This document shows, piece after piece, positions 1-36,971 of a DNA stretch of 55,571 bases. The notes under the pieces were generated by a model. The model worked only from the letters and a program-made list of their open reading frames with translations. It searched no databases and had not been told where the DNA came from. Numbering within the stretch: position 1 is the stretch's first letter; each line of letters opens with the position of its first letter. This DNA comes from Alphaproteobacteria bacterium (GTDB lineage Bacteria > Pseudomonadota > Alphaproteobacteria > RF32 > CAG-239), in NCBI GenBank assembly GCA_045630985.1, contig JAZQTW010000066.1:1-55571 (forward strand). The letters run 5' to 3'. Both the position numbers and the translations under genes were made by a program.

Positions 1-130
1 AAATGGATAAATTTTAGTTTCTATCTCTCAGATGGAAGCCTGTTAGCAAAAATTCATGTACCTTTTTTGTACACTAGAATTTTTGCTACAGGACATCTGA
101 GGCTATAAACGTAAAATTTATCCCATTTAA
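1..130. repeat. Long-hairpin palindromic element, copy A (RPE-like)
   Basis: Nested inverted repeats: aaatggataaatttta/taaaatttatcccattt, ctcagatg/catctgag, cctg/cagg, tagcaaaaattc/gaatttttgcta, tgtac-N7-gtaca; same motifs recur at 9887-10243. Confidence 0.85.
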
Positions 131-6975: not shown

Positions 6976-7332
6976 ATGAAAAAGTTAGGTTTGGTTTTGT
7001 TTGCAGTTTTATTTAGTTTTAATGCAAATGCGTTTGATTTGGCAGGAGCTACAAATAAACTTGCTAATGATGTAAATGCTACATCTGAAGCAGTTGAAGC
7101 TAAAAAAGCTGAAGCAAAAGCTAAGAAAGAAGAGATGAAAGCAAAAGCTGAGGCAAAGAAGGCTGAAGCAAAGGCTGAAAAAGAAGCAAGAAAAGCAAAA
7201 TATGAAGCTAAAAAGGCTGAGCTTAAAGCAGAGAAAGAAGCTAAAAAAGCTGAGTATGAAGCTGAAAAAGCAAAGAGAAAAAAAGCATTAGATGATGCTA
7301 AAAATAATTTGAAAAATGCTTTTGGTAAATAA
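6976..7332 (+). CDS. Secreted Ala/Lys/Glu-rich helical protein
   Basis: Signal peptide ending ANA, ~18-aa EAKKAExKAEKEAxKAxY repeats, AGGAG RBS. Confidence 0.8.
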   Translation: MKKLGLVLFAVLFSFNANAFDLAGATNKLANDVNATSEAVEAKKAEAKAKKEEMKAKAEAKKAEAKAEKEARKAKYEAKKAELKAEKEAKKAEYEAEKAKRKKALDDAKNNLKNAFGK

Positions 7333-7484: not shown

Positions 7485-9890
7485 ATGCATAAACTTATTA
7501 TAAATCTTATCAGTTTTGGTATGTTGATGGTGGCACTTTTGTTTGCCGGTGTTTTTGTATGGTTAAGTGTAAATGGTTTTGATTTACCGGATTATAAGAG
7601 TTTATCAAAATATGAGCCTCCTGTTACTACAAGACTTTATGCTGGAGACGGACAGGTTTTGATGGAGTATGCCGTTGAAAAACGTATCTTTGTGCCTGAA
7701 AATAAAATTCCTGAAAGAATAAAACATGCTTTTATTGCGGCAGAAGATAAGCACTTTTATTCTCATTCTGGTATTGATTTTCTCGGAATAGCTCGTGCTA
7801 TTATTACGAATTTTAAAAATTATGCTCAAGGACGTCGTTTGGTTGGTGCTTCTACAATTACTCAGCAAGTGGCTAAAAACTTTTTATTGTCTTCTGAGCG
7901 TTCGCTAACTCGTAAAATTAAAGAGGCTATTTTGGCATATCGCATTAGTCGAGCATTTTCTAAAGAGCATGTGTTAGAGCTTTATCTAAATGAGATTTAT
8001 TTGGGTAACCGTGCTTATGGTGTGGCGGCAGCTGCTTTGAATTATTTCAATAAAGCGCTTGATGAGTTGACTTTAGAAGAGGCGGCATATTTGGCAGCTC
8101 TTCCTAAAGGTCCAAATAACTATAATCCTAAAAAACGTTATGAACAAGCGGTTGGTCGTCGTAACTGGGTTATTGAGCGTATGATTGAAGATGGATATGC
8201 AACTCGTGAAGAGGGTGATGTTGCCAAAGCTAGGCCATTGGTTACTGTTGATAGGCGTTTTGGATATTTAGAAGATGGTGAGTACTTTAGTGATGAAGTG
8301 CGTCGTGTATTGGCTAAGAGTTTAGGCGATGATGCTATTTTTGAAGGTGGTTTGATGGTGCGTACTACTGTTGATCCAGAACTTCAAAAGTTGGCTACTA
8401 AGACTTTCCGTCAGGGGTTGATTAATTATGATAGACGCCATGGGTATCGTCCTACAGGTATTGCTATTGACTTAAATGGTAACTATAAAGAGGATTTGCT
8501 TGCGGCAGAACTTCCTAAAGGAGCGGAAGATAGCTGGGTTAAAGCTGTTGTTGTGGCAGTTGATAGTAATAAAGCTACAGTTGAGACTATTGATGGTAAA
8601 AAAGGTGAAATTAGCTTAAAGAGTTTAGCTTGGGCTAGAAAAACATTGGAAGATCAACGTGTTAGTTTATCCCCTAAAAAGGCGTCTGATGTGTTAACTA
8701 AAGGCGATGTGATTTATGTTGAAGAAATAAAAGCTGGTGCTTTTGAGCTTCGTCAAGTGCCTAATGTTGAGGGGGCAATGGTTGTTATGAGCCCTCATAA
8801 TGGTAAGATTTTAGCTATGGTTGGTGGTTTCTCTTTTGATAAATCGCAATTTAATCGAGCTACACAAGCTTATCGTCAGACCGGTTCTACATTTAAGCCT
8901 TTTGTTTATGTTACAGCGTTAGAGCTTGGTTATTCGCCAACAGATTTAATTCTTGATGCTCCTTTTGTGCTTAATCAAGGTGTGGGGCTTCCTTTGTGGA
9001 AACCTTCTAACTACTCAAAAGGATTTTCTGGTCTTACAACTCTTCGTCAAGGTATTGAAAAGTCTAAAAACTTGATGACTGTTCGTCTTGCTCAAGATAT
9101 TGGTATGGATAAAGTGGTAGAAATGTCTAAGCGCTTAGGTGTTATGGATAATTTGCCTCATCTTTTATCTATGTCTCTTGGTTCTGGTGATACTCGCCTT
9201 ATTGATATGGTTACAGCTTATTCTTCATTTGTAAATGGTGGTATGAAGGTTCAACCTTATCTTATTGAGCAAATTCAAGACCGCTACGGTAAGAGCCTTT
9301 ATAGAAACAATGATAGCGAGTGTATTGGTTGTAAAGTTGCGCATTTTGATGAAAAAGCTGAAGTGCCTGAAATTATGGACAATCGTCAGCGCGTGCTTGA
9401 TGAGTTGACTGCTTATCAGATGGTTTCTATCTTACAAGGTGTGGCTATTCGTGGTACAGGTGCAAGGCTGGCCTCTCTAAATAAAAATCTTGCAGGTAAG
9501 ACTGGTACTACCAATGAAAATAAAGATGCTTGGTTTATTGGTTTTTCTCCTGACCTTGTGGTAGGTGTGTATGTTGGTTTTGATGAGCCTCGCACTCTTG
9601 GTAAAATTGAAACAGGTGCAGCAGCGGCTCTTCCTATCTTTTATGATTTTATGAAAGATGCGCTAAAAGATAAGCCAAATTATGATTTTCGTGTGCCTAA
9701 AGGTATTCGTTTTATTCGTGTTAACCCTCAAACAGGTAAGCCTGCAACGCTTGATGACAAGGTTGTTATTGTAGAAGCGCTTAAGCCTGATTTTGACTTT
9801 AACAACAATCAGCGCGTGATTGGTGATGGCGGTGTGCCGATGTTGGAGGATGAGAGGGATAGTGAGTTTGGTTTCGGCATAGAATATTAA
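7485..9890 (+). CDS. mrcA: Penicillin-binding protein 1A (transglycosylase/transpeptidase)
   Basis: AEDKHFYSH, GASTITQQVAKN, RKIKE, STFK, SKN, KTGT. Confidence 0.95.
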   Translation: MHKLIINLISFGMLMVALLFAGVFVWLSVNGFDLPDYKSLSKYEPPVTTRLYAGDGQVLMEYAVEKRIFVPENKIPERIKHAFIAAEDKHFYSHSGIDFLGIARAIITNFKNYAQGRRLVGASTITQQVAKNFLLSSERSLTRKIKEAILAYRISRAFSKEHVLELYLNEIYLGNRAYGVAAAALNYFNKALDELTLEEAAYLAALPKGPNNYNPKKRYEQAVGRRNWVIERMIEDGYATREEGDVAKARPLVTVDRRFGYLEDGEYFSDEVRRVLAKSLGDDAIFEGGLMVRTTVDPELQKLATKTFRQGLINYDRRHGYRPTGIAIDLNGNYKEDLLAAELPKGAEDSWVKAVVVAVDSNKATVETIDGKKGEISLKSLAWARKTLEDQRVSLSPKKASDVLTKGDVIYVEEIKAGAFELRQVPNVEGAMVVMSPHNGKILAMVGGFSFDKSQFNRATQAYRQTGSTFKPFVYVTALELGYSPTDLILDAPFVLNQGVGLPLWKPSNYSKGFSGLTTLRQGIEKSKNLMTVRLAQDIGMDKVVEMSKRLGVMDNLPHLLSMSLGSGDTRLIDMVTAYSSFVNGGMKVQPYLIEQIQDRYGKSLYRNNDSECIGCKVAHFDEKAEVPEIMDNRQRVLDELTAYQMVSILQGVAIRGTGARLASLNKNLAGKTGTTNENKDAWFIGFSPDLVVGVYVGFDEPRTLGKIETGAAAALPIFYDFMKDALKDKPNYDFRVPKGIRFIRVNPQTGKPATLDDKVVIVEALKPDFDFNNNQRVIGDGGVPMLEDERDSEFGFGIEY

Positions 9891-10243
9891 AGGGAAAAAT
9901 TTTGCAAACTAATCTTTGAATGGAGGCCTTACTCTAAATGCTCACGTACCTTTTTGTACGCTCCGCTTTAGAGAAGGACATTCAAAGTTATTTCACAAAA
10001 TTTTCCTCCTTTAATCCTGTAACGATGAACGTGAGGATGTAAAATGAAAATTCACGTACCACTTTGTACGCTAAAATTTTCATTTCCCTCAAGCCCATCT
10101 CTATCTATCTAAAATTTTCCTCCTTTAATGTGGGGCGAGAGTTAGCAAATGGAAGCCACTCTTCGTCGCGTCGTGTACTTCTATGTACACTCGTGCTCCT
10201 CGGTGGACATTCGCTACTCACTACCAAAATTTCTTCTATTTAA
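9887..10243. repeat. Tandem array of three ~115-bp long-hairpin elements (copies B, C, D; RPE-like)
   Basis: Each has apical TCRYGTAC-N6-GTACRCT and ends AAAATTT..TTTAA (10014, 10128, 10243); B and D carry ATG-GA(A/G)G-CC...GG-A-CAT. Confidence 0.85.
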
Positions 10244-10281
10244 TTTTAAGGGAAAAATTTTAGGTTTGATTGTTTAATTAT

Positions 10282-10310
10282 AAATGTCGGCTGGATGGTC
10301 GGCATTTTTT
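10282..10310 (+). terminator. Intrinsic terminator downstream of mrcA and the hairpin array
   Basis: aaatgtcggct-ggat-ggtcggcatttttt (G-U rich stem). Confidence 0.65.
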
Positions 10311-10406: not shown

Positions 10407-11885
10407 ATGTTCGTTTATATTGAAAACTATACTAAATCAGCAATTGAGCTTGATTATGAGTTAAAGCAGATGAGAAGGGAACATGGAACGATTCCGCCTA
10501 TAGATGCTCTAAATTATTTGAAACAGACTAATCATATTGCAAACATTAAATTTATTCTTAAAGAGCTTAATAAGCTAGATAAAGATGATAGATGGTATTA
10601 CAAAGCTTTTGTTTTATCTGCTGTTAATAGAAGGGCGCATACTAAAAGAGTGTATGAAAATTTGAGAAATCTAGCGCTTGAGGGTGGGTACTTGGAAGAA
10701 TTTGAAAAAGCTGATAGCTATAAAAAGGTGTATCAACCTTATGATTGTAAGTTTGTTTTTGTTTATAATAGTACTGTAGATTTGGAAAAGTGCATTGAAG
10801 ATAATAAGAGGTGTGTTGCTAAGTTTGATTCATATAGGAGTTTTGTTGATTTTTGTTCATTAGATTTGAAGAGTGTTTCACGTCTTTATTTGGGGAGTAT
10901 TCAGAAAGTTAATTTTAGGGGAGCTAAAAATATTCCACCTTATACAGATTTATCTAATTGTTTTCATGTTGAATTTGGTGGTTGTGATTTAAGTCAATTT
11001 GAGGGGGTTAATTTTGTTTATGGTGCTACGGTTAAATTTAATGGAGATTATAATTTTCCGGATAATTTTGATGTTTCTCGCTGTAAAAAAATTAATTTTG
11101 AGAATTGTGATATTAGTAATTTAAATGATGTTAGAGTTTTGGAGAAAGGTATATTTTATAAAACGGTTCTGCCTAAGGCTGTTTATGTATATCCTAAAGC
11201 AAGTGTGGTGTTTGATGAGTGTGATTTTAGTACTGTGAATGAGTTAGGATATACTTCGGGTATTATTGATGCTAATACTATAAAGTTTATAAGCTGTCGT
11301 AATTTACCTAAAGTTTTAGATTTGAGCAAATGTGAACACTTTAGTTTTAAAGATACAGATTTAGCTGGAGTTGAGAAGATTAAATTTAAACCTGGTCGTA
11401 GGATTGACTTAAGTGGGGCATATAATTTTCCTGAAGTGATGAGTTTTCCTCCTTTAGATTATTTGCAAGATGTTTGCTTGAGTAGTTGTGATTTGAAAGG
11501 AGTTAAAGAATTACACTTTAGTGAAAAAACTTCTGTTGAGATAAGAAATTCAAAGAATTTGCCTGAAAACTTAGATCTCACTAATTGTTATAGAGTTGAT
11601 TTGACTGGTTCTGATATGACAGGTGTTCAGAATATTGTGTTCGGAAAAGATTCTACTGTTTTATTGAGAGAAGCTATAAATGTACCTACTTGTTTAGATT
11701 TTTCTATGTGTGATGAGGTTTATGTTGATGAAGTATCTCTTCTTAATGTTAAGAGTATTAAATTTGCTAGTAGAGAACAAAGAGATAAAGTTTTGAAGGA
11801 GATTAAGTTTAATAGGCGAGTGGTTTTTAATAATAAGATATCTAATATTTTTAATGGTTTAGGTTTTGGTGTAAAGGGGGATTAG
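10407..11885 (+). CDS. LRR-like solenoid protein with conserved N-terminal domain, paralog 1
   Basis: N-domain TNHIANIKFILKE...VYENLRNLALEGGYLEEF; ~42-aa repeats LPxxLDLSxCxxxxFxxxDLxGVxxIKF. Confidence 0.85.
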   Translation: MFVYIENYTKSAIELDYELKQMRREHGTIPPIDALNYLKQTNHIANIKFILKELNKLDKDDRWYYKAFVLSAVNRRAHTKRVYENLRNLALEGGYLEEFEKADSYKKVYQPYDCKFVFVYNSTVDLEKCIEDNKRCVAKFDSYRSFVDFCSLDLKSVSRLYLGSIQKVNFRGAKNIPPYTDLSNCFHVEFGGCDLSQFEGVNFVYGATVKFNGDYNFPDNFDVSRCKKINFENCDISNLNDVRVLEKGIFYKTVLPKAVYVYPKASVVFDECDFSTVNELGYTSGIIDANTIKFISCRNLPKVLDLSKCEHFSFKDTDLAGVEKIKFKPGRRIDLSGAYNFPEVMSFPPLDYLQDVCLSSCDLKGVKELHFSEKTSVEIRNSKNLPENLDLTNCYRVDLTGSDMTGVQNIVFGKDSTVLLREAINVPTCLDFSMCDEVYVDEVSLLNVKSIKFASREQRDKVLKEIKFNRRVVFNNKISNIFNGLGFGVKGD

Positions 11886-13202
11886 ATGATATATTATAAA
11901 ACAAAAGAAAATCCCATTGTTGTAGATTACTTTATTAAACATGCAAGATATAATAATGGAGATACTATATCGCCAGAGATTGCTCTTAAAGTACTAGAGA
12001 AAACTAATCATTATGTTAATATAAAGTTTATTTTAAAGGAGATTAATAAATTAGATAAAGAAAAAAGGCTTGAATTTAGAAGTTTTGTGCTTGAAGCTAT
12101 TACTGCAAGAAAACACAGAAATAGTGTGTATGAGGGATTAAGAAAATTAGCTGAAGAAGGCGATTATTTGGATAAATTTCATTTTTTTGATAGTGTAGTT
12201 GCTAAAGATTATGATGATGAGGGTAATCATGTATTTTTTGCTAAACAAAATAGAAAACCTAAGGGTGATTTGAGTGACTATGATTGTTTAGTTTGTGATG
12301 AGAATATTAGAAAGTTAGGAAGTGATGATATATCTTCAACGGATAAATTATATTTACCTAAGGTATGTGATTTTTCTTTAGTTGATGATTTGGATTTGAC
12401 TGATAAAATCAAAGAAAAAGATGGTAGATATAAAGAGTTAAAGTTTAAGAGTGGGGGAAAGATTTCTCTTAAGCTTTTTAAAGCATCTCCTGAAAAAATG
12501 GAATTTGATAAGGCCGAAGTTTCTTTTGTTAACACAGATCTTAGGATTGTTAATGAGTTGGTATTAAATGAATGTAAAAAAGTTTATTTTCATTGTTGTG
12601 ATCTTAATGATAATTTAGATATTACAAGTTGTAAAGAAGTAGAATTTTCTTACTGTTATGATTTGGATAAGATTAAAAATTTAGATTTTTCTCGTTGTAA
12701 AATTGCAAAGTTTAGGGAATGCGGTAAACTTCCGGATGGTTGTGATTTTTCTAATTGTGATAGTGTGCGCTTTAGTAGTATTAATTTGAGTAATTGGGAT
12801 ACATTTAAGTTTAAAGATGGTTGTTTTGTTCATTTTATAGATTGTGATAATATACCTTATGATTTTAATTTAACTCCTTTTGCTAGTGTATATTTTGATA
12901 CGTTAAAGGATTATACATTGTATGATACTATGATTAAATTTAGAGAGGGAGTATCTTTAAGATGTGAGCGTACGACTATGCCTGAAAAGGTTGATTTTTC
13001 TAAGTGTGGAGAAATTAAACTTTGCAATATGTGGCATGATTCTTTTGCGTATACTAAAGAATTTAAGTTTAAGAATAAAGCACAATATGAACAAGTTTAT
13101 AATGTAATTGATAAAGTAAAAGGATTTATTGGAGCTAGTGTTATTTTTGCAGATGAAGAAAAAGCGACTTATCCTTATTTGAATGCACAAAAAACTTTAT
13201 AA
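11886..13202 (+). CDS. LRR-like solenoid protein, paralog 2
   Basis: TNHYVNIKFILKEI...VYEGLRKLAEEGDYL; DFSxC repeats; FKFKNKAQ end motif. Confidence 0.85.
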   Translation: MIYYKTKENPIVVDYFIKHARYNNGDTISPEIALKVLEKTNHYVNIKFILKEINKLDKEKRLEFRSFVLEAITARKHRNSVYEGLRKLAEEGDYLDKFHFFDSVVAKDYDDEGNHVFFAKQNRKPKGDLSDYDCLVCDENIRKLGSDDISSTDKLYLPKVCDFSLVDDLDLTDKIKEKDGRYKELKFKSGGKISLKLFKASPEKMEFDKAEVSFVNTDLRIVNELVLNECKKVYFHCCDLNDNLDITSCKEVEFSYCYDLDKIKNLDFSRCKIAKFRECGKLPDGCDFSNCDSVRFSSINLSNWDTFKFKDGCFVHFIDCDNIPYDFNLTPFASVYFDTLKDYTLYDTMIKFREGVSLRCERTTMPEKVDFSKCGEIKLCNMWHDSFAYTKEFKFKNKAQYEQVYNVIDKVKGFIGASVIFADEEKATYPYLNAQKTL

Positions 13203-18737: not shown

Positions 18738-20381
18738 ATGTTTATTGATGTCAGAAATACTAAAAGAAAGGTGGTTGAGCTAGATGGTATATTAAAAAAG
18801 GCTCGTAATCAAGCAGGTAAAATTACTCCTGAAATAGCGGAAGCATTTTTGCATCTTTCGAATCATTTTGTGCATATGAAGTTAATTGCTAAAGGCATTT
18901 GTAATATTGATAATAAAGAAGAACGATTAGCTTTTAAGGATGTTGTAATCTCTATGGTAGAGAGACGTGTTCAGGTAGATTCAGTTATGGAAAAGTTGCG
19001 TGCTTTGGCTGTTGAAGGTGGGTATGAGAAGGAATTTGATGAAGCTAATAATAAAACCAAGTGGTTTGGAAAAGAAGTTTGTCGGAGAACTGTAGTTGAA
19101 AGTTATGGTTTGTTTGAAAAGGGTAAAAAAGAATTACAACCTCCGATATTATCTGGAGGTAGAAAACATCTTCACTATAACAATATTGATTATATTAGTT
19201 TTGGTGGACATAAATTTGACGTGCTGAGTTGCGGTTTTACCCCAGATGCTGAAATAAACCTTTTGGGAACGGAAGAAGTTTGTTTACAGGGGGTTAAAGC
19301 AATGCCTTTTAAATTTCCATTTAGTGATTGTGGTGTTATTGGGTTACACTATGTAGATCTTGATGGGGTGGAGAATGTTGAGTTTAAAGATAAAGCGGAA
19401 GTGAAGTTTGATAATGTTGAAAATATAAAGGATATTGATTTTAGTAAATGTTATACGCTTACTTTGAGTAATTGTGATTTGTGTAATGTAAAAGAGTTGA
19501 AGTTTGATAATGCTTGGAAGGTTGAGATAAATGGTTGTAATAACTTGCCTGAAGTGTTGGACTTTTCTAATGTTGATAATGTTGATTTAAGTAATACTGA
19601 TTTAAGCGGAGTTAAAGAGATTAAGTTTAAGGATGGGGCAAAAGTTGTTTTGGATAGTGCAACTAATTTCCCTGAATATTTAGATGTTTCTAAGTGTGCA
19701 AGTGCTACTTTTAATTTAGCTGATATGAGTGGAGTTAAAAATCTTAAGATAAAAGATGAGCAAAAGCTTGAGAGATTAAAAGCATTTCCGCAAAATATTG
19801 ACTGCGCTGAATGTGAAACTTTTTTTAGTATTGGGTTTGCGGATTTAAATAAAGTTAGAGAAATTAGTAATGTTGAGGGGATAAATTTGTATTTGTCTGA
19901 TAGTTATAATACGCCTGAAGTTGCAGATTTTTCTGATTTTGAAAAAGTGCATATGCAATATACCTGCCTTAATAAAGGAACTCAAGATTCATCTGAAAGT
20001 GATTATGTAAAAATTAAAGCTAAAGAATTGGTGATTAATGAATGTTATAAGTTTCCTAAAGTGTTAGATTTGAGCGAATGTGATAGTGTTACTATTGATA
20101 AAAGTCATTTAGGTGATATTGAGAATATTATCTTTAAGGAAGGGGCAGATATATTTATTTGGGTTTGTTATGGAATGCCAAAGAATATAGATGTTTCTAT
20201 GTGTGGTAATGTTAATTTTAGCTCATGCAGAATGAGTAATGTTGAAGAGATTAAATTTAAAGATGATGATCAATGTGGAGAGGCCTTTGAACATATTGAT
20301 GATTTTAAAGGTAAAAAAGTTATAGTAAATACTGGTAATTCGCAAAAAGTGGTTGCTTTGAATTCTTCTTTAGAATTCTAA
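18738..20381 (+). CDS. LRR-like solenoid protein, paralog 3
   Basis: GKITPEIA..SNHFVHMKLI..LRALAVEGGYEKEF; LPEVLDFSNVDNVDLSNTDLSGVKEIKFKDG repeats. Confidence 0.85.
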   Translation: MFIDVRNTKRKVVELDGILKKARNQAGKITPEIAEAFLHLSNHFVHMKLIAKGICNIDNKEERLAFKDVVISMVERRVQVDSVMEKLRALAVEGGYEKEFDEANNKTKWFGKEVCRRTVVESYGLFEKGKKELQPPILSGGRKHLHYNNIDYISFGGHKFDVLSCGFTPDAEINLLGTEEVCLQGVKAMPFKFPFSDCGVIGLHYVDLDGVENVEFKDKAEVKFDNVENIKDIDFSKCYTLTLSNCDLCNVKELKFDNAWKVEINGCNNLPEVLDFSNVDNVDLSNTDLSGVKEIKFKDGAKVVLDSATNFPEYLDVSKCASATFNLADMSGVKNLKIKDEQKLERLKAFPQNIDCAECETFFSIGFADLNKVREISNVEGINLYLSDSYNTPEVADFSDFEKVHMQYTCLNKGTQDSSESDYVKIKAKELVINECYKFPKVLDLSECDSVTIDKSHLGDIENIIFKEGADIFIWVCYGMPKNIDVSMCGNVNFSSCRMSNVEEIKFKDDDQCGEAFEHIDDFKGKKVIVNTGNSQKVVALNSSLEF

Positions 20382-36628: not shown

Positions 36629-36719
36629 GGAAGCGTGGCAGAGCTGGTTTAATGCACCTGACTTGAAATCAGACGTAGGCGCGAGTCTACCCGGGGTTCG
36701 AATCCCTGCGCTTCCGCCA
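36629..36719 (+). tRNA. tRNA-Ser (anticodon TGA)
   Basis: ggaagcg/cgcttcc acceptor stem, cttgaaa loop, long variable arm, GGTTCGAATCC, encoded CCA. Confidence 0.96.
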
Positions 36720-36927
36720 GTTAGATGGGCTGTTCTTAGAGATAGGAACAGCTCTTTTTCTATGGAAAGAACCCCGGGGAAGGGGTTCGACTACAAGCGT
36801 AAGGCAGACGTGAGTATGCCGTTTGCCAAAGGCAATACGCGCAGTGCGACCGAATGAAAATGAGGTCAATCCCTGCGCTTCCGCCAGTTAGAGGGGCTGT
36901 TCTTAGAGATAAAACAGCTCTTTTTTT
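36701..36927 (+). repeat. Direct repeat of tRNA-Ser 3' end plus terminator (36701-36759 and 36868-36926) around a structured insert
   Basis: aatccctgcgcttccgccagttaga(t/g)gggctgttcttagagata(gg/aa)aacagctcttttt twice, 167 bp apart. Confidence 0.9.
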
Positions 36928-36971
36928 TGTTTAAATGGGTAAATTTTGTGTGCTAATTCGTAGATAAAAAT

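Follow-up and report, generated by a model that had tools for sequence, protein, structure and literature searches.

The stretch of DNA analysed here (the window) carries, directly behind the penicillin-binding protein gene mrcA, a tandem array of long palindromic elements that are very probably repeats related to the Rickettsia palindromic element RPE-1. The window is the complete 55,571-nt contig JAZQTW010000066.1, numbered C66 among the contigs of the source genome (G000; 1,326,735 bases in 72 contigs, 32.5% G+C, 88% complete), and the host belongs to an alphaproteobacterial lineage of the gut or rumen, not to Rickettsia. Copies of the family follow the local guanine-cytosine (GC) skew in their orientation, commonly start at stop codons and are stacked head to tail. 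The balance tips slightly towards the joint proposal that the family is a non-autonomous relative of RPE-1 that spread through a replication-coupled, single-strand mechanism. RPE-related elements are a kind already known, and the novelty is lower than a preliminary description of this DNA had held; what is new is the host lineage, the polarity, the stop-codon target, the exchange of stem modules and the head-to-tail arrays.

Anatomy and covariation of the element family

The preliminary description was made from the sequence letters, and its particulars hold. Four units with stems that differ and still pair, the fixed apex, its 13-nt distance from an internal loop in three units, the common right ends and the regular spacing are all present, as are the further left end behind the array and the placement of the array between the mrcA stop codon and a terminator-like hairpin (Table 1). 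The apices of units A to D read TCAT, TCAC, TCAC and TCGT, each followed by GTAC-N6 or N7-GTAC and by ACT or GCT. In A, B and D the motif ATGGA(A/G)GCC lies exactly 13 nt 5′ of the apex, with GGACAT on the opposite arm, and the right ends take the form AAAATTT..TTTAA, with unit ends spaced by 114 and 115 bp. Folded as single plus strands, units A, B and C reach −49.3, −40.9 and −21.4 kcal/mol (z is −9.0, −7.1 and −4.4, respectively), while D reaches −30.2 kcal/mol with a z of −1.65, a value equalled by 7 of 200 shuffled sequences and thus alone not beyond chance. Tandem Repeats Finder, run on the window, did not list the array, because the units are too dissimilar and have only their fixed parts in common.

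Iterated nhmmer searches from the four units found 33 hits on 12 contigs of the source genome, or 21 places after arrays were collapsed, and a regular expression for the core found 14 full copies there; the true copy number is higher, since many of the hits stand at the end of a contig. Full copies measure about 130 bp. Each opens with (T)TTAA, then has a left terminal repeat, either ATGGGTAAATTTT or AGGGAAAAATTTT, continues through a variable outer stem, the fixed segment ATGGAAGCC and a variable inner stem to the fixed apex CAYGTAC-N6-8-GTACRC, and returns along complementary arms that carry GGACAT to a right repeat (AAAATTTCCCTCATTTAA) ending in TTTAA. The terminal inverted repeats span about 18 nt, and TTAA stands at both ends. 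At least four outer and at least five inner stem variants (v and i numbers below) are combined differently among copies, and a shorter unit, the C type, is built without the ATGGAAGCC/GGACAT loop. All arrays run head to tail; only the first unit has the left terminal repeat, and each later unit starts, behind the TTTAA of the unit before it, with a junction motif (..CATGRCGAGAG..).

That these units form a family with covarying stems around fixed, unpaired motifs had been proposed from four copies, and the larger collection bears it out. When the 14 full copies were aligned, 17 of the 33 consensus pairs had changed on both sides. A covariance model (R1) collected 73 matches from 49 loci of three relatives, in which 94.1% of cells were paired, compared with 74.3% after shuffling, in an alignment of related sequences fitted to the model's structure. 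Compensatory changes were found in 30 of the 33 pairs, none of 500 shuffles reached any of five covariation measures and sliding the partners by 1–3 columns reduced pairing to 35–47%. The stem changes are mostly swaps of whole modules, with few point changes. The data show that the palindrome is maintained, be it at the level of DNA or of RNA.

The elements have little room for coding. No open frame was found on the plus strand of 68 of 87 copies or on the minus strand of 78 of 87, and stop codons fall in most frames because of the TTTAA ends. The plus strand is the one that the usual transcript carries. The minus strand folds slightly better, both as RNA (64 of 87 copies, by a mean of 3 kcal/mol) and with DNA parameters (69 of 87).

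Related hairpins, which we call type II, have different arms (starting ..ACGGTCAT.. or ..CCATCATATGAGCG..), keep the apex as GTAC-N8-GTAC and often have the same right end. They occur in the source genome at C67:4192-4315 and C5:3950-4260 and on C54, C62 and C65, always oriented with the skew, and after mrcA at loci L078, L080 and L139 in other genera. A 157-bp insert stands directly after the GTACRC of the apex at C67:9263-9419, C3:5466-5619, C17:8813-8968 and C48:8808-8962, in four host units that include types I and II, and also downstream of mrcA at locus L062 of the relative G013. The other three copies are 90–92% identical to the C67 copy; all are co-oriented with host unit and skew, and the insert has a hairpin near either end. 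The insert has the look of another small element, one whose target is the apex, and Rfam gave no match on locus L026, which holds the C67 copy. The tetranucleotide GTAC itself is under-represented in the source genome, with 2195 occurrences against 3994 expected from base composition.

Relation to RPE-1

RPE-1 is the Rickettsia palindromic element (RPE) that was reportedly described by Ogata et al. in 2000 and 2002. In the literature, RPEs are called Rickettsia-specific, with one family also in Wolbachia (PMC3767692, PMC1779305), and are treated as a Rickettsia peculiarity for which no transposase is known (PMC3767692, PMC1779305, PMC10969869). A match between the window's core and RPEs had been stated in the preliminary description, and the apex confirms it. 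We searched for the pattern CAYGTACN{6,8}GTACRC, with the same pattern read backwards as control, in 121 genomes from the family of a metagenome-assembled genome (MAG) titled Rickettsiaceae, here the Rickettsiaceae-family sample. The apex occurred in 54 of them, with up to 183, 77, 49 and 47 copies per genome, while the reversed control was found 0–1 times.

In G288, a single-contig genome of this sample (1.44 Mb), 9 of 24 apex sites lie inside open reading frames (ORFs), and all nine are antisense to the ORF. In seven of these ORFs a match to NCBIfam TIGR01045, the palindromic element RPE1 domain, contains the apex site; in the other two, TIGR01045 was not among the matches listed. Such stretches with the motif include alr 227-269 (motif at 245), ddl 144-189 (162) and gpsA 242-284 (260). 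Since the apex falls inside TIGR01045 stretches, we take it to be the core of RPE-1. The model R1 produced full-length matches of 33–43 bits on Rickettsiaceae-family genomes. The extended core reads ..CCTCACGTAC-N6-GTACGCTGCGG.. there and ..GCTCACGTAC-N6-GTACGCTCCGC.. in the gut-lineage elements, and the terminal repeats are GGTAATTTGT.. and ..ACAAATTCCTC as against GGGTAAATTTTGT.. and ..CAAAATTTCCCTC.

Insertion into genes is found in the gut lineage as well, though none is in the window itself. The argS gene of the relative G020 holds a complete, in-frame element, placed between the parts for the catalytic and the DALR domain and antisense to the plus strand, and the argS genes of G024 and G133 contain a shorter remnant. 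The argS match splits into two adjoining pieces at the insert position in 22 other genomes of the genus, and three further genomes have partial matches only. At the peptide level only a short AY-x-x-VRE...TG stretch is common to both groups (..AAYKNVREDASTG.. in RPE1, ..GAYIEVREHLGTG.. here). In the comparison with described families that the preliminary description had called for, the RPE-1 core is related and Rfam gave no match. At gathering score the window matched two tRNAs only, and at E up to 1 there was no match on locus L001, which holds the array, or on L026.

Distribution among relatives

The covariance model finds the family well beyond the window. R1 matched the source genome and all 12 other genomes sampled from its genus, with a best E of at most 2e-13 in 11 of the 12 and of 5.4e-5 in G011, and the array used as a DNA query matched 20 of 24 other genus genomes. 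In other genera of the family R1 reached an E of 1.5e-7 or weaker only, and overall 83 of 151 genomes matched. Copy number within the genus runs from 0 to 31 among the matches listed. The plasmid collection, searched with the array, gave no match.

The nearest PBP1A loci (79–95% amino acid identity) belong to animal-gut or rumen MAGs titled Alphaproteobacteria bacterium, uncultured Rhodospirillales or Acetobacter sp., titles that would fit the GTDB order RF32. A first search for relatives included one genome of the same order, the other out-of-family genomes being related at class level only. In a class-wide sample the apex pattern had any hit in 83 of 401 genomes. It reached counts of 17 to 105 in several other small-genome families (105 in G632, 36 in G494, 34 in G581, 32 in G359 and 27 in G628; controls at most 6). 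In the six genomes inspected from five other alphaproteobacterial families, the apex sites belong to long hairpins that share the inner architecture described above. One more enriched genome, still unpublished, was left out of the argument.

Element orientation follows GC skew

The direction of replication was inferred from GC skew. On the contigs of the source genome that hold elements, the skew is 0.10–0.28 in size, also on contigs whose genes are evenly divided between the strands (C17, for example, has +0.22, with 16 ORFs on the plus and 15 on the minus strand). The strand bearing ATGGAAGCC is the G-rich strand in 33 of 33 hits, and ORFs are co-oriented with the local skew in 651 of 948 cases (69%). 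When all oriented GTAC-N6-8-GTAC hairpins are counted, including type II, 31 of 32 follow the skew; the exception is copy A, at the start of its contig, where the local skew is −0.01. Skew in this genome is unusually strong, 0.19–0.28 in size on most contigs listed.

The same orientation was found in three relatives (G020, G024 and G008), where all copies (68 of 68) match the skew that the surrounding 3–8 kb locus shows once the element is masked; the other ORFs in these loci agree in 74 of 129 cases (57%). The upstream ORF is co-oriented in 59 of 66 copies, and the 7 copies with an opposite upstream ORF, four of which lie in a lagging-strand argS region, still follow the skew. So does the source-genome array at C67:4192-4477, which is antisense to both neighbours. 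By our own reasoning the G-rich strand is the lagging-strand template, and therefore the strand with the 5′-TTAA-left end would lie on that template. The active strand of IS200/IS605 elements is described as having this same polarity (PMC5027513).

In the Rickettsiaceae-family sample the polarity is partial, and we do not claim that it is general across RPE relatives. Read by replichore, 11 of 15 extragenic copies in G288 agree, 2 are against and 2 are unclear, while copies inside ORFs are tied to the gene strand. On contig C1 of G272, 23 of 24 apex sites between 490 and 780 kb (290 kb) have one orientation, and the next 220 kb has 21 to 8 in the opposite one. A literature search that covered few subscription journals found no paper linking RPEs to strand or replication orientation, and for the RF32 or CAG-239 lineage its listing contained no paper on repeats.

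Target sites and turnover

Most copies start where a gene ends. In G020, G024 and G008, 47 of 68 copies start between −13 and +8 nt from the stop codon of a co-oriented ORF, the frame-ending TAA being that of the terminal (T)TTAA or that inside the left repeat, and TAA or TTAA precedes nearly every left end. Orthologues of mrcA without an element have the same ...GAATATTAA end; therefore, insertion occurred at or just after the native stop codon. Related hairpins occupy the same mrcA site at loci L062, L064 and L089, and in other genera the 3′ end of mrcA has diverged too far for an alignment. One copy of the source genome, on C2, has inverted ends (TTAG...CTAA). Because TTAA is palindromic, its duplication cannot be told from the end of the repeat.

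The nearest genome, G013, is about 80–85% identical in nucleotides where synteny holds. At three orthologous sites of G000 and G013, an element stands at exactly the same place in both genomes with different modules, both arms having changed together (v2+i1 versus v3+another inner stem, C type versus v3+i4, and v1+i1 versus v2+i1). A pig-gut metagenome contig from run X3 passes from the mrcA stop codon through a normal left end into unit D and skips B and C. From these module swaps and the X3 contig we conclude that whole units were replaced or added at fixed sites. Three metagenome runs from animal guts, pig or unspecified, contain contigs that are 88–100% like the mrcA end and pieces of the array, and metagenome contigs break within the repeats. 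Copy A is 98.5% identical over 130 nt to C42:18538-18667, with different flanks, and full C-type copies were found at C5:26953-27082 and at L062. Coverage in the RNA run X19 comprises mrcA positions 9304-9454 and no array positions, and is uninformative on transcription of the array.

Proposed mechanism of spread and rival explanations

A replication-coupled, single-strand mechanism, to which we assign just under an even chance, would join these observations. The strand carrying the 5′-TTAA-left end would be the strand used, and movement or replacement would proceed through a folded single strand on the lagging-strand template. T-TAA would be where new copies land, which is plainest at the stop codons of genes on the leading strand. 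Each right end would restore the target, so that further units could be added head to tail, and recombination between the fixed segments would swap stem modules while the arms stay complementary. The enzyme would be one other than a recognisable Y1 HUH, TnpB or common DDE transposase in the genomes searched. Near-identical copies at different loci, the module changes and the X3 variant without B and C argue for activity. Of the readings in the preliminary description, the single-stranded DNA substrate fits the absolute agreement with skew, and the structured RNA of the 3′ untranslated region is weakened.

Several results weigh against this proposal, and one is that no enzyme was found. Y1_Tnp and OrfB_IS605 were not found in the source genome, at its 88% completeness, and Y1_Tnp was not found in the high-copy genomes G013, G020, G008 and G133, although it occurs in 15 of 36 genus genomes. 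G011 has 17 Y1 matches and at most 3 elements, R1 found no adjoining element at six Y1 loci, and an IS200 copy inspected in a relative has GC-rich ends unlike those of the elements. The HUH nuclease suggested earlier, or a TnpB protein, was accordingly rejected as mobiliser: the genes and elements do not co-occur, and the IS200 ends are unrelated. A search for three DDE or IS110-type Pfam families (DDE_Tnp_1, rve and Transposase_20) found none in G000, G013, G020, G008 or G072, and tyrosine recombinases amount only to two Xer-like proteins per genome plus a few integrases. No pair of element ends in the source genome encloses a transposase gene. A distant end-like pair on C59, considered as a parent insertion sequence, encloses what reads in translation as a thioredoxin-like ORF, and was set aside as a chance match. 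Mimicry of Xer/dif by the apex, or of the FtsK-orienting motif KOPS, was likewise dropped; one stem variant only resembles KOPS, and the arms are unlike dif.

The remaining objections concern the relationship, the polarity and the target. Whole-element similarity to RPE-1 is weak (E 6e-5 to 1e-2), and TIGR01045 did not match the argS insert proteins or the four translated window units at any E up to 10. The fitted alignment and the kinship of its sequences temper the covariation. At face value, 68 of 68 at p = 0.57 has a probability of about 4e-17 and 59 of 66 one of about 1e-8, but copies in the three relatives are partly orthologous and the ORF calls are crude (longest ORFs of at least 100 amino acids), so that these values make the agreement look stronger than it is, with the direction not in doubt. 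In G288, where the 20-kb local skew is weak, only 15 of 24 apex sites agree with it, and orientation is mixed over the remainder of the G272 chromosome. The polarity could also come from selection instead of the insertion mechanism. Finally, no clean empty site was found, at mrcA or, among close relatives, at the three G000/G013 sites, C42 or argS; the C42 site in G013 aligns into the element, and the argS site has decayed remnants in place of an empty one.

Three other explanations were weighed against the same data. A classical miniature inverted-repeat transposable element (MITE), an internally deleted DDE-type insertion sequence moved in trans by a transposase through double-strand cut-and-paste with duplication of TTAA or TA, would account for the roughly 18-nt terminal inverted repeats, for the TTAA at either end and for the range of copy number in the genus; tandem arrays would be expected of it if each insertion regenerates the target. 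Double-strand cut-and-paste does not, however, predict agreement with skew in 33 of 33 and 68 of 68 copies, and the DDE families are missing from the five genomes searched, with a thioredoxin-like ORF inside the C59 pair. The ends of the C2 copy, inverted and not direct, indicate that the tetranucleotide acts as part of the repeat, in this single case. We regard a MITE as improbable. The same low probability attaches to a structured RNA module of the 3′ untranslated region (3′-UTR), already considered in the preliminary description, which selection would keep as an attenuator, a processing site or a stabiliser of mRNA, roles proposed for REP and ERIC sequences, and which would owe its orientation to the transcript. 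Its position fits, since most copies run in the direction of the ORF upstream, at whose stop codon most also start, arrays read behind a gene precede terminator-like hairpins and covariation is strong. Its orientation speaks against it: all 7 copies with an opposite upstream ORF follow the skew, and the array at C67:4192-4477 is antisense to both neighbours. The strand opposite the usual transcript folds slightly better, relatives of the element lie in frame inside genes and Rfam gave no match even at E 1.

We give a still lower probability to immobile relics, in which arrays and module swaps would come only from local duplication, hairpin slippage and gene conversion among old copies. All three compared G000/G013 orthologous sites are occupied in both genomes and a fourth (C42) aligns into the element, the genomes searched yielded no transposase and the argS insert decays to shorter remnants, all of which relics would explain. 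They would not explain copies 98.5% identical at different loci, the wide variation in copy number within the genus, whole elements with both arms changed together at one and the same site, or the 157-bp inserts, 90–92% identical to that on C67, that four separate host units contain.

Extended beyond the gut lineage, the replication-coupled proposal becomes more speculative, and we consider its widest form doubtful. RPE-type hairpins would then not be confined to Rickettsia; marked by the apex CAYGTAC-N6-8-GTACRC, they might form a superfamily across small-genome Alphaproteobacteria that spreads with no transposase of its own. Some conserved function of the host, at work at the replication fork, would take the folded lagging-strand template as its substrate, recognise the apex and bring new copies to T-TAA; strict polarity and stop-codon placement would be the unscrambled signature of that mechanism. 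If this were true, the polarity and stop placement of the gut-lineage elements would be the mechanism signature sought for RPEs since 2000.

Other features of the window

Coordinates of the units and their surroundings are collected in Table 1. A tRNA at 36629-36716 has its 3′ part repeated about 200 bp further on, both with a terminator-like tail of their own, and the distant solo left end comes after this duplicated part. The whole arrangement (36629-36965) may have been left behind by an element that integrated at the tRNA. Upstream of mrcA, a 118-amino-acid ORF (6976-7332) consists mostly of Lys/Ala/Glu-rich tandem repeats with a 54-bp period (3.2 copies at 7095-7270), and had no family match.

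Table 1. Positions of element units, solo ends and the mrcA locus in the window
Feature	Coordinates	Strand	Description
Copy A	1..130	+	Full element, first bases lost at contig start; outer stem v1, inner stem i2; R1 107 bits
mrcA, PBP1A-family penicillin-binding protein	7485..9890	+	TIGR02074, E 8e-180
mrcA stop codon TAA	9888..9890	+	Within terminal TTAA at left of unit B
Unit B	9887..10014	+	Full element with both terminal inverted repeats; R1 132 bits
Unit C	10015..10128	+	Left-truncated, short C type without ATGGAAGCC/GGACAT loop; apex and right end as in other units
Unit D	10129..10243	+	Full core and right end; junction motif in place of left terminal repeat; R1 91 bits
Solo left-end fragment TTTTAAGGGAAAAATTTT	10243..10262	+	3′ of the array
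Terminator-like hairpin, then T run	10282..10307	+	Downstream of the array
Solo left end TTTAAATGGGTAAATTTT and beginning of outer stem	36930..36965	+	Breaks off just before the position of ATGGAAGCC

A paralogous family of proteins of about 490 amino acids, with weak pentapeptide-repeat matches, is encoded in the window at 10407-11885 and 11886-13202 and near 18738, 45789 and 47108, and elsewhere in the source genome, including C5:25121-26584 (33% identity between the window and C5 copies). By tblastn there are 37 N-terminal hits in this genome, 6 of which have an element array at most 600 bp upstream; several start at contig ends. The first 110 or so codons, together with about 70 bp upstream, are 85–97% identical among some copies.

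Comparison with known systems

The elements resemble IS200/IS605 in that their orientation fits an active strand on the lagging-strand template and a fixed short sequence precedes the left end on its 5′ side. What is recognised would in both be a hairpin with unpaired bases (PMC5027513). They differ in that high-copy genomes have no Y1 gene, and in form: each element is one hairpin with terminal inverted repeats, whereas in IS200/IS605 the subterminal hairpins are two and differ from each other. In the IS200 copy of a relative, the ends are unrelated to those of the elements.

Repetitive extragenic palindromic (REP) sequences are hairpins of 20–40 nt with a GTAG head that stand at gene 3′ ends, in mosaic arrays of few unit types known as bacterial interspersed mosaic elements (BIMEs), and a role in mRNA 3′ ends has been proposed for them. 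The present elements are likewise extragenic 3′-end hairpins in mosaic arrays of few unit types, but are about 130 nt long. Unlike REPs with their REP-associated tyrosine transposases (RAYTs), they have no Y1_Tnp in the source or high-copy genomes and do not adjoin the six Y1 loci. To our knowledge, strict replication polarity has not been reported for REP. Enterobacterial repetitive intergenic consensus (ERIC) sequences, or intergenic repeat units (IRUs), are imperfect palindromes of about 127 bp in transcribed intergenic regions of enterobacteria, whose compensatory changes have been read as a constraint at the RNA level. Imperfect palindromes of similar size, with size variants from internal insertions at fixed points, are common to both; the sequences are unrelated, the present polarity follows replication and not the transcript, and the wider present family includes in-frame genic members.

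Integron attC sites are hairpins of conserved structure and variable sequence in which unpaired bases mark the strand, and they are used as folded single strands in a replication-dependent orientation. The present elements have the same combination of conserved structure, variable sequence and fixed, strand-marking unpaired bases. Six of their arrays precede a gene of one paralogous family. They differ from attC in that no IntI-type integrase or attI was identified, the tyrosine recombinases being Xer-like with a few integrases, and in that relatives of the element lie inside ORFs.

The closest likeness is to RPE-1. Both are interspersed repeats of 100–150 bp that form one long imperfect hairpin, with the same apex and extended core and similar terminal repeats; both are inserted in frame into housekeeping genes with the same strand always sense, and a transposase is known for neither. 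How RPEs spread has been a puzzle since 2000, and the missing enzyme in the gut lineage repeats it. The differences lie in the host, a gut alphaproteobacterial lineage that is kin to the Rickettsiaceae-family sample at class level only, and in TIGR01045, which does not match the gut-lineage elements. RPEs have been treated as peculiar to Rickettsia, and the window holds a clear relative of them in an unrelated, uncultured gut lineage. Gut-lineage copies are nearly all extragenic and at stop codons, and they have head-to-tail arrays, shuffled stem modules and an exceptionless replication orientation, in contrast to RPE-1. They offer three testable marks, namely orientation that follows replication, left ends at TAA stops and head-to-tail growth with module exchange. 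This polarity and target signature leads to a hypothesis about mechanism, a hairpin of single-stranded DNA at the fork, under which the spread of RPEs becomes directly testable.

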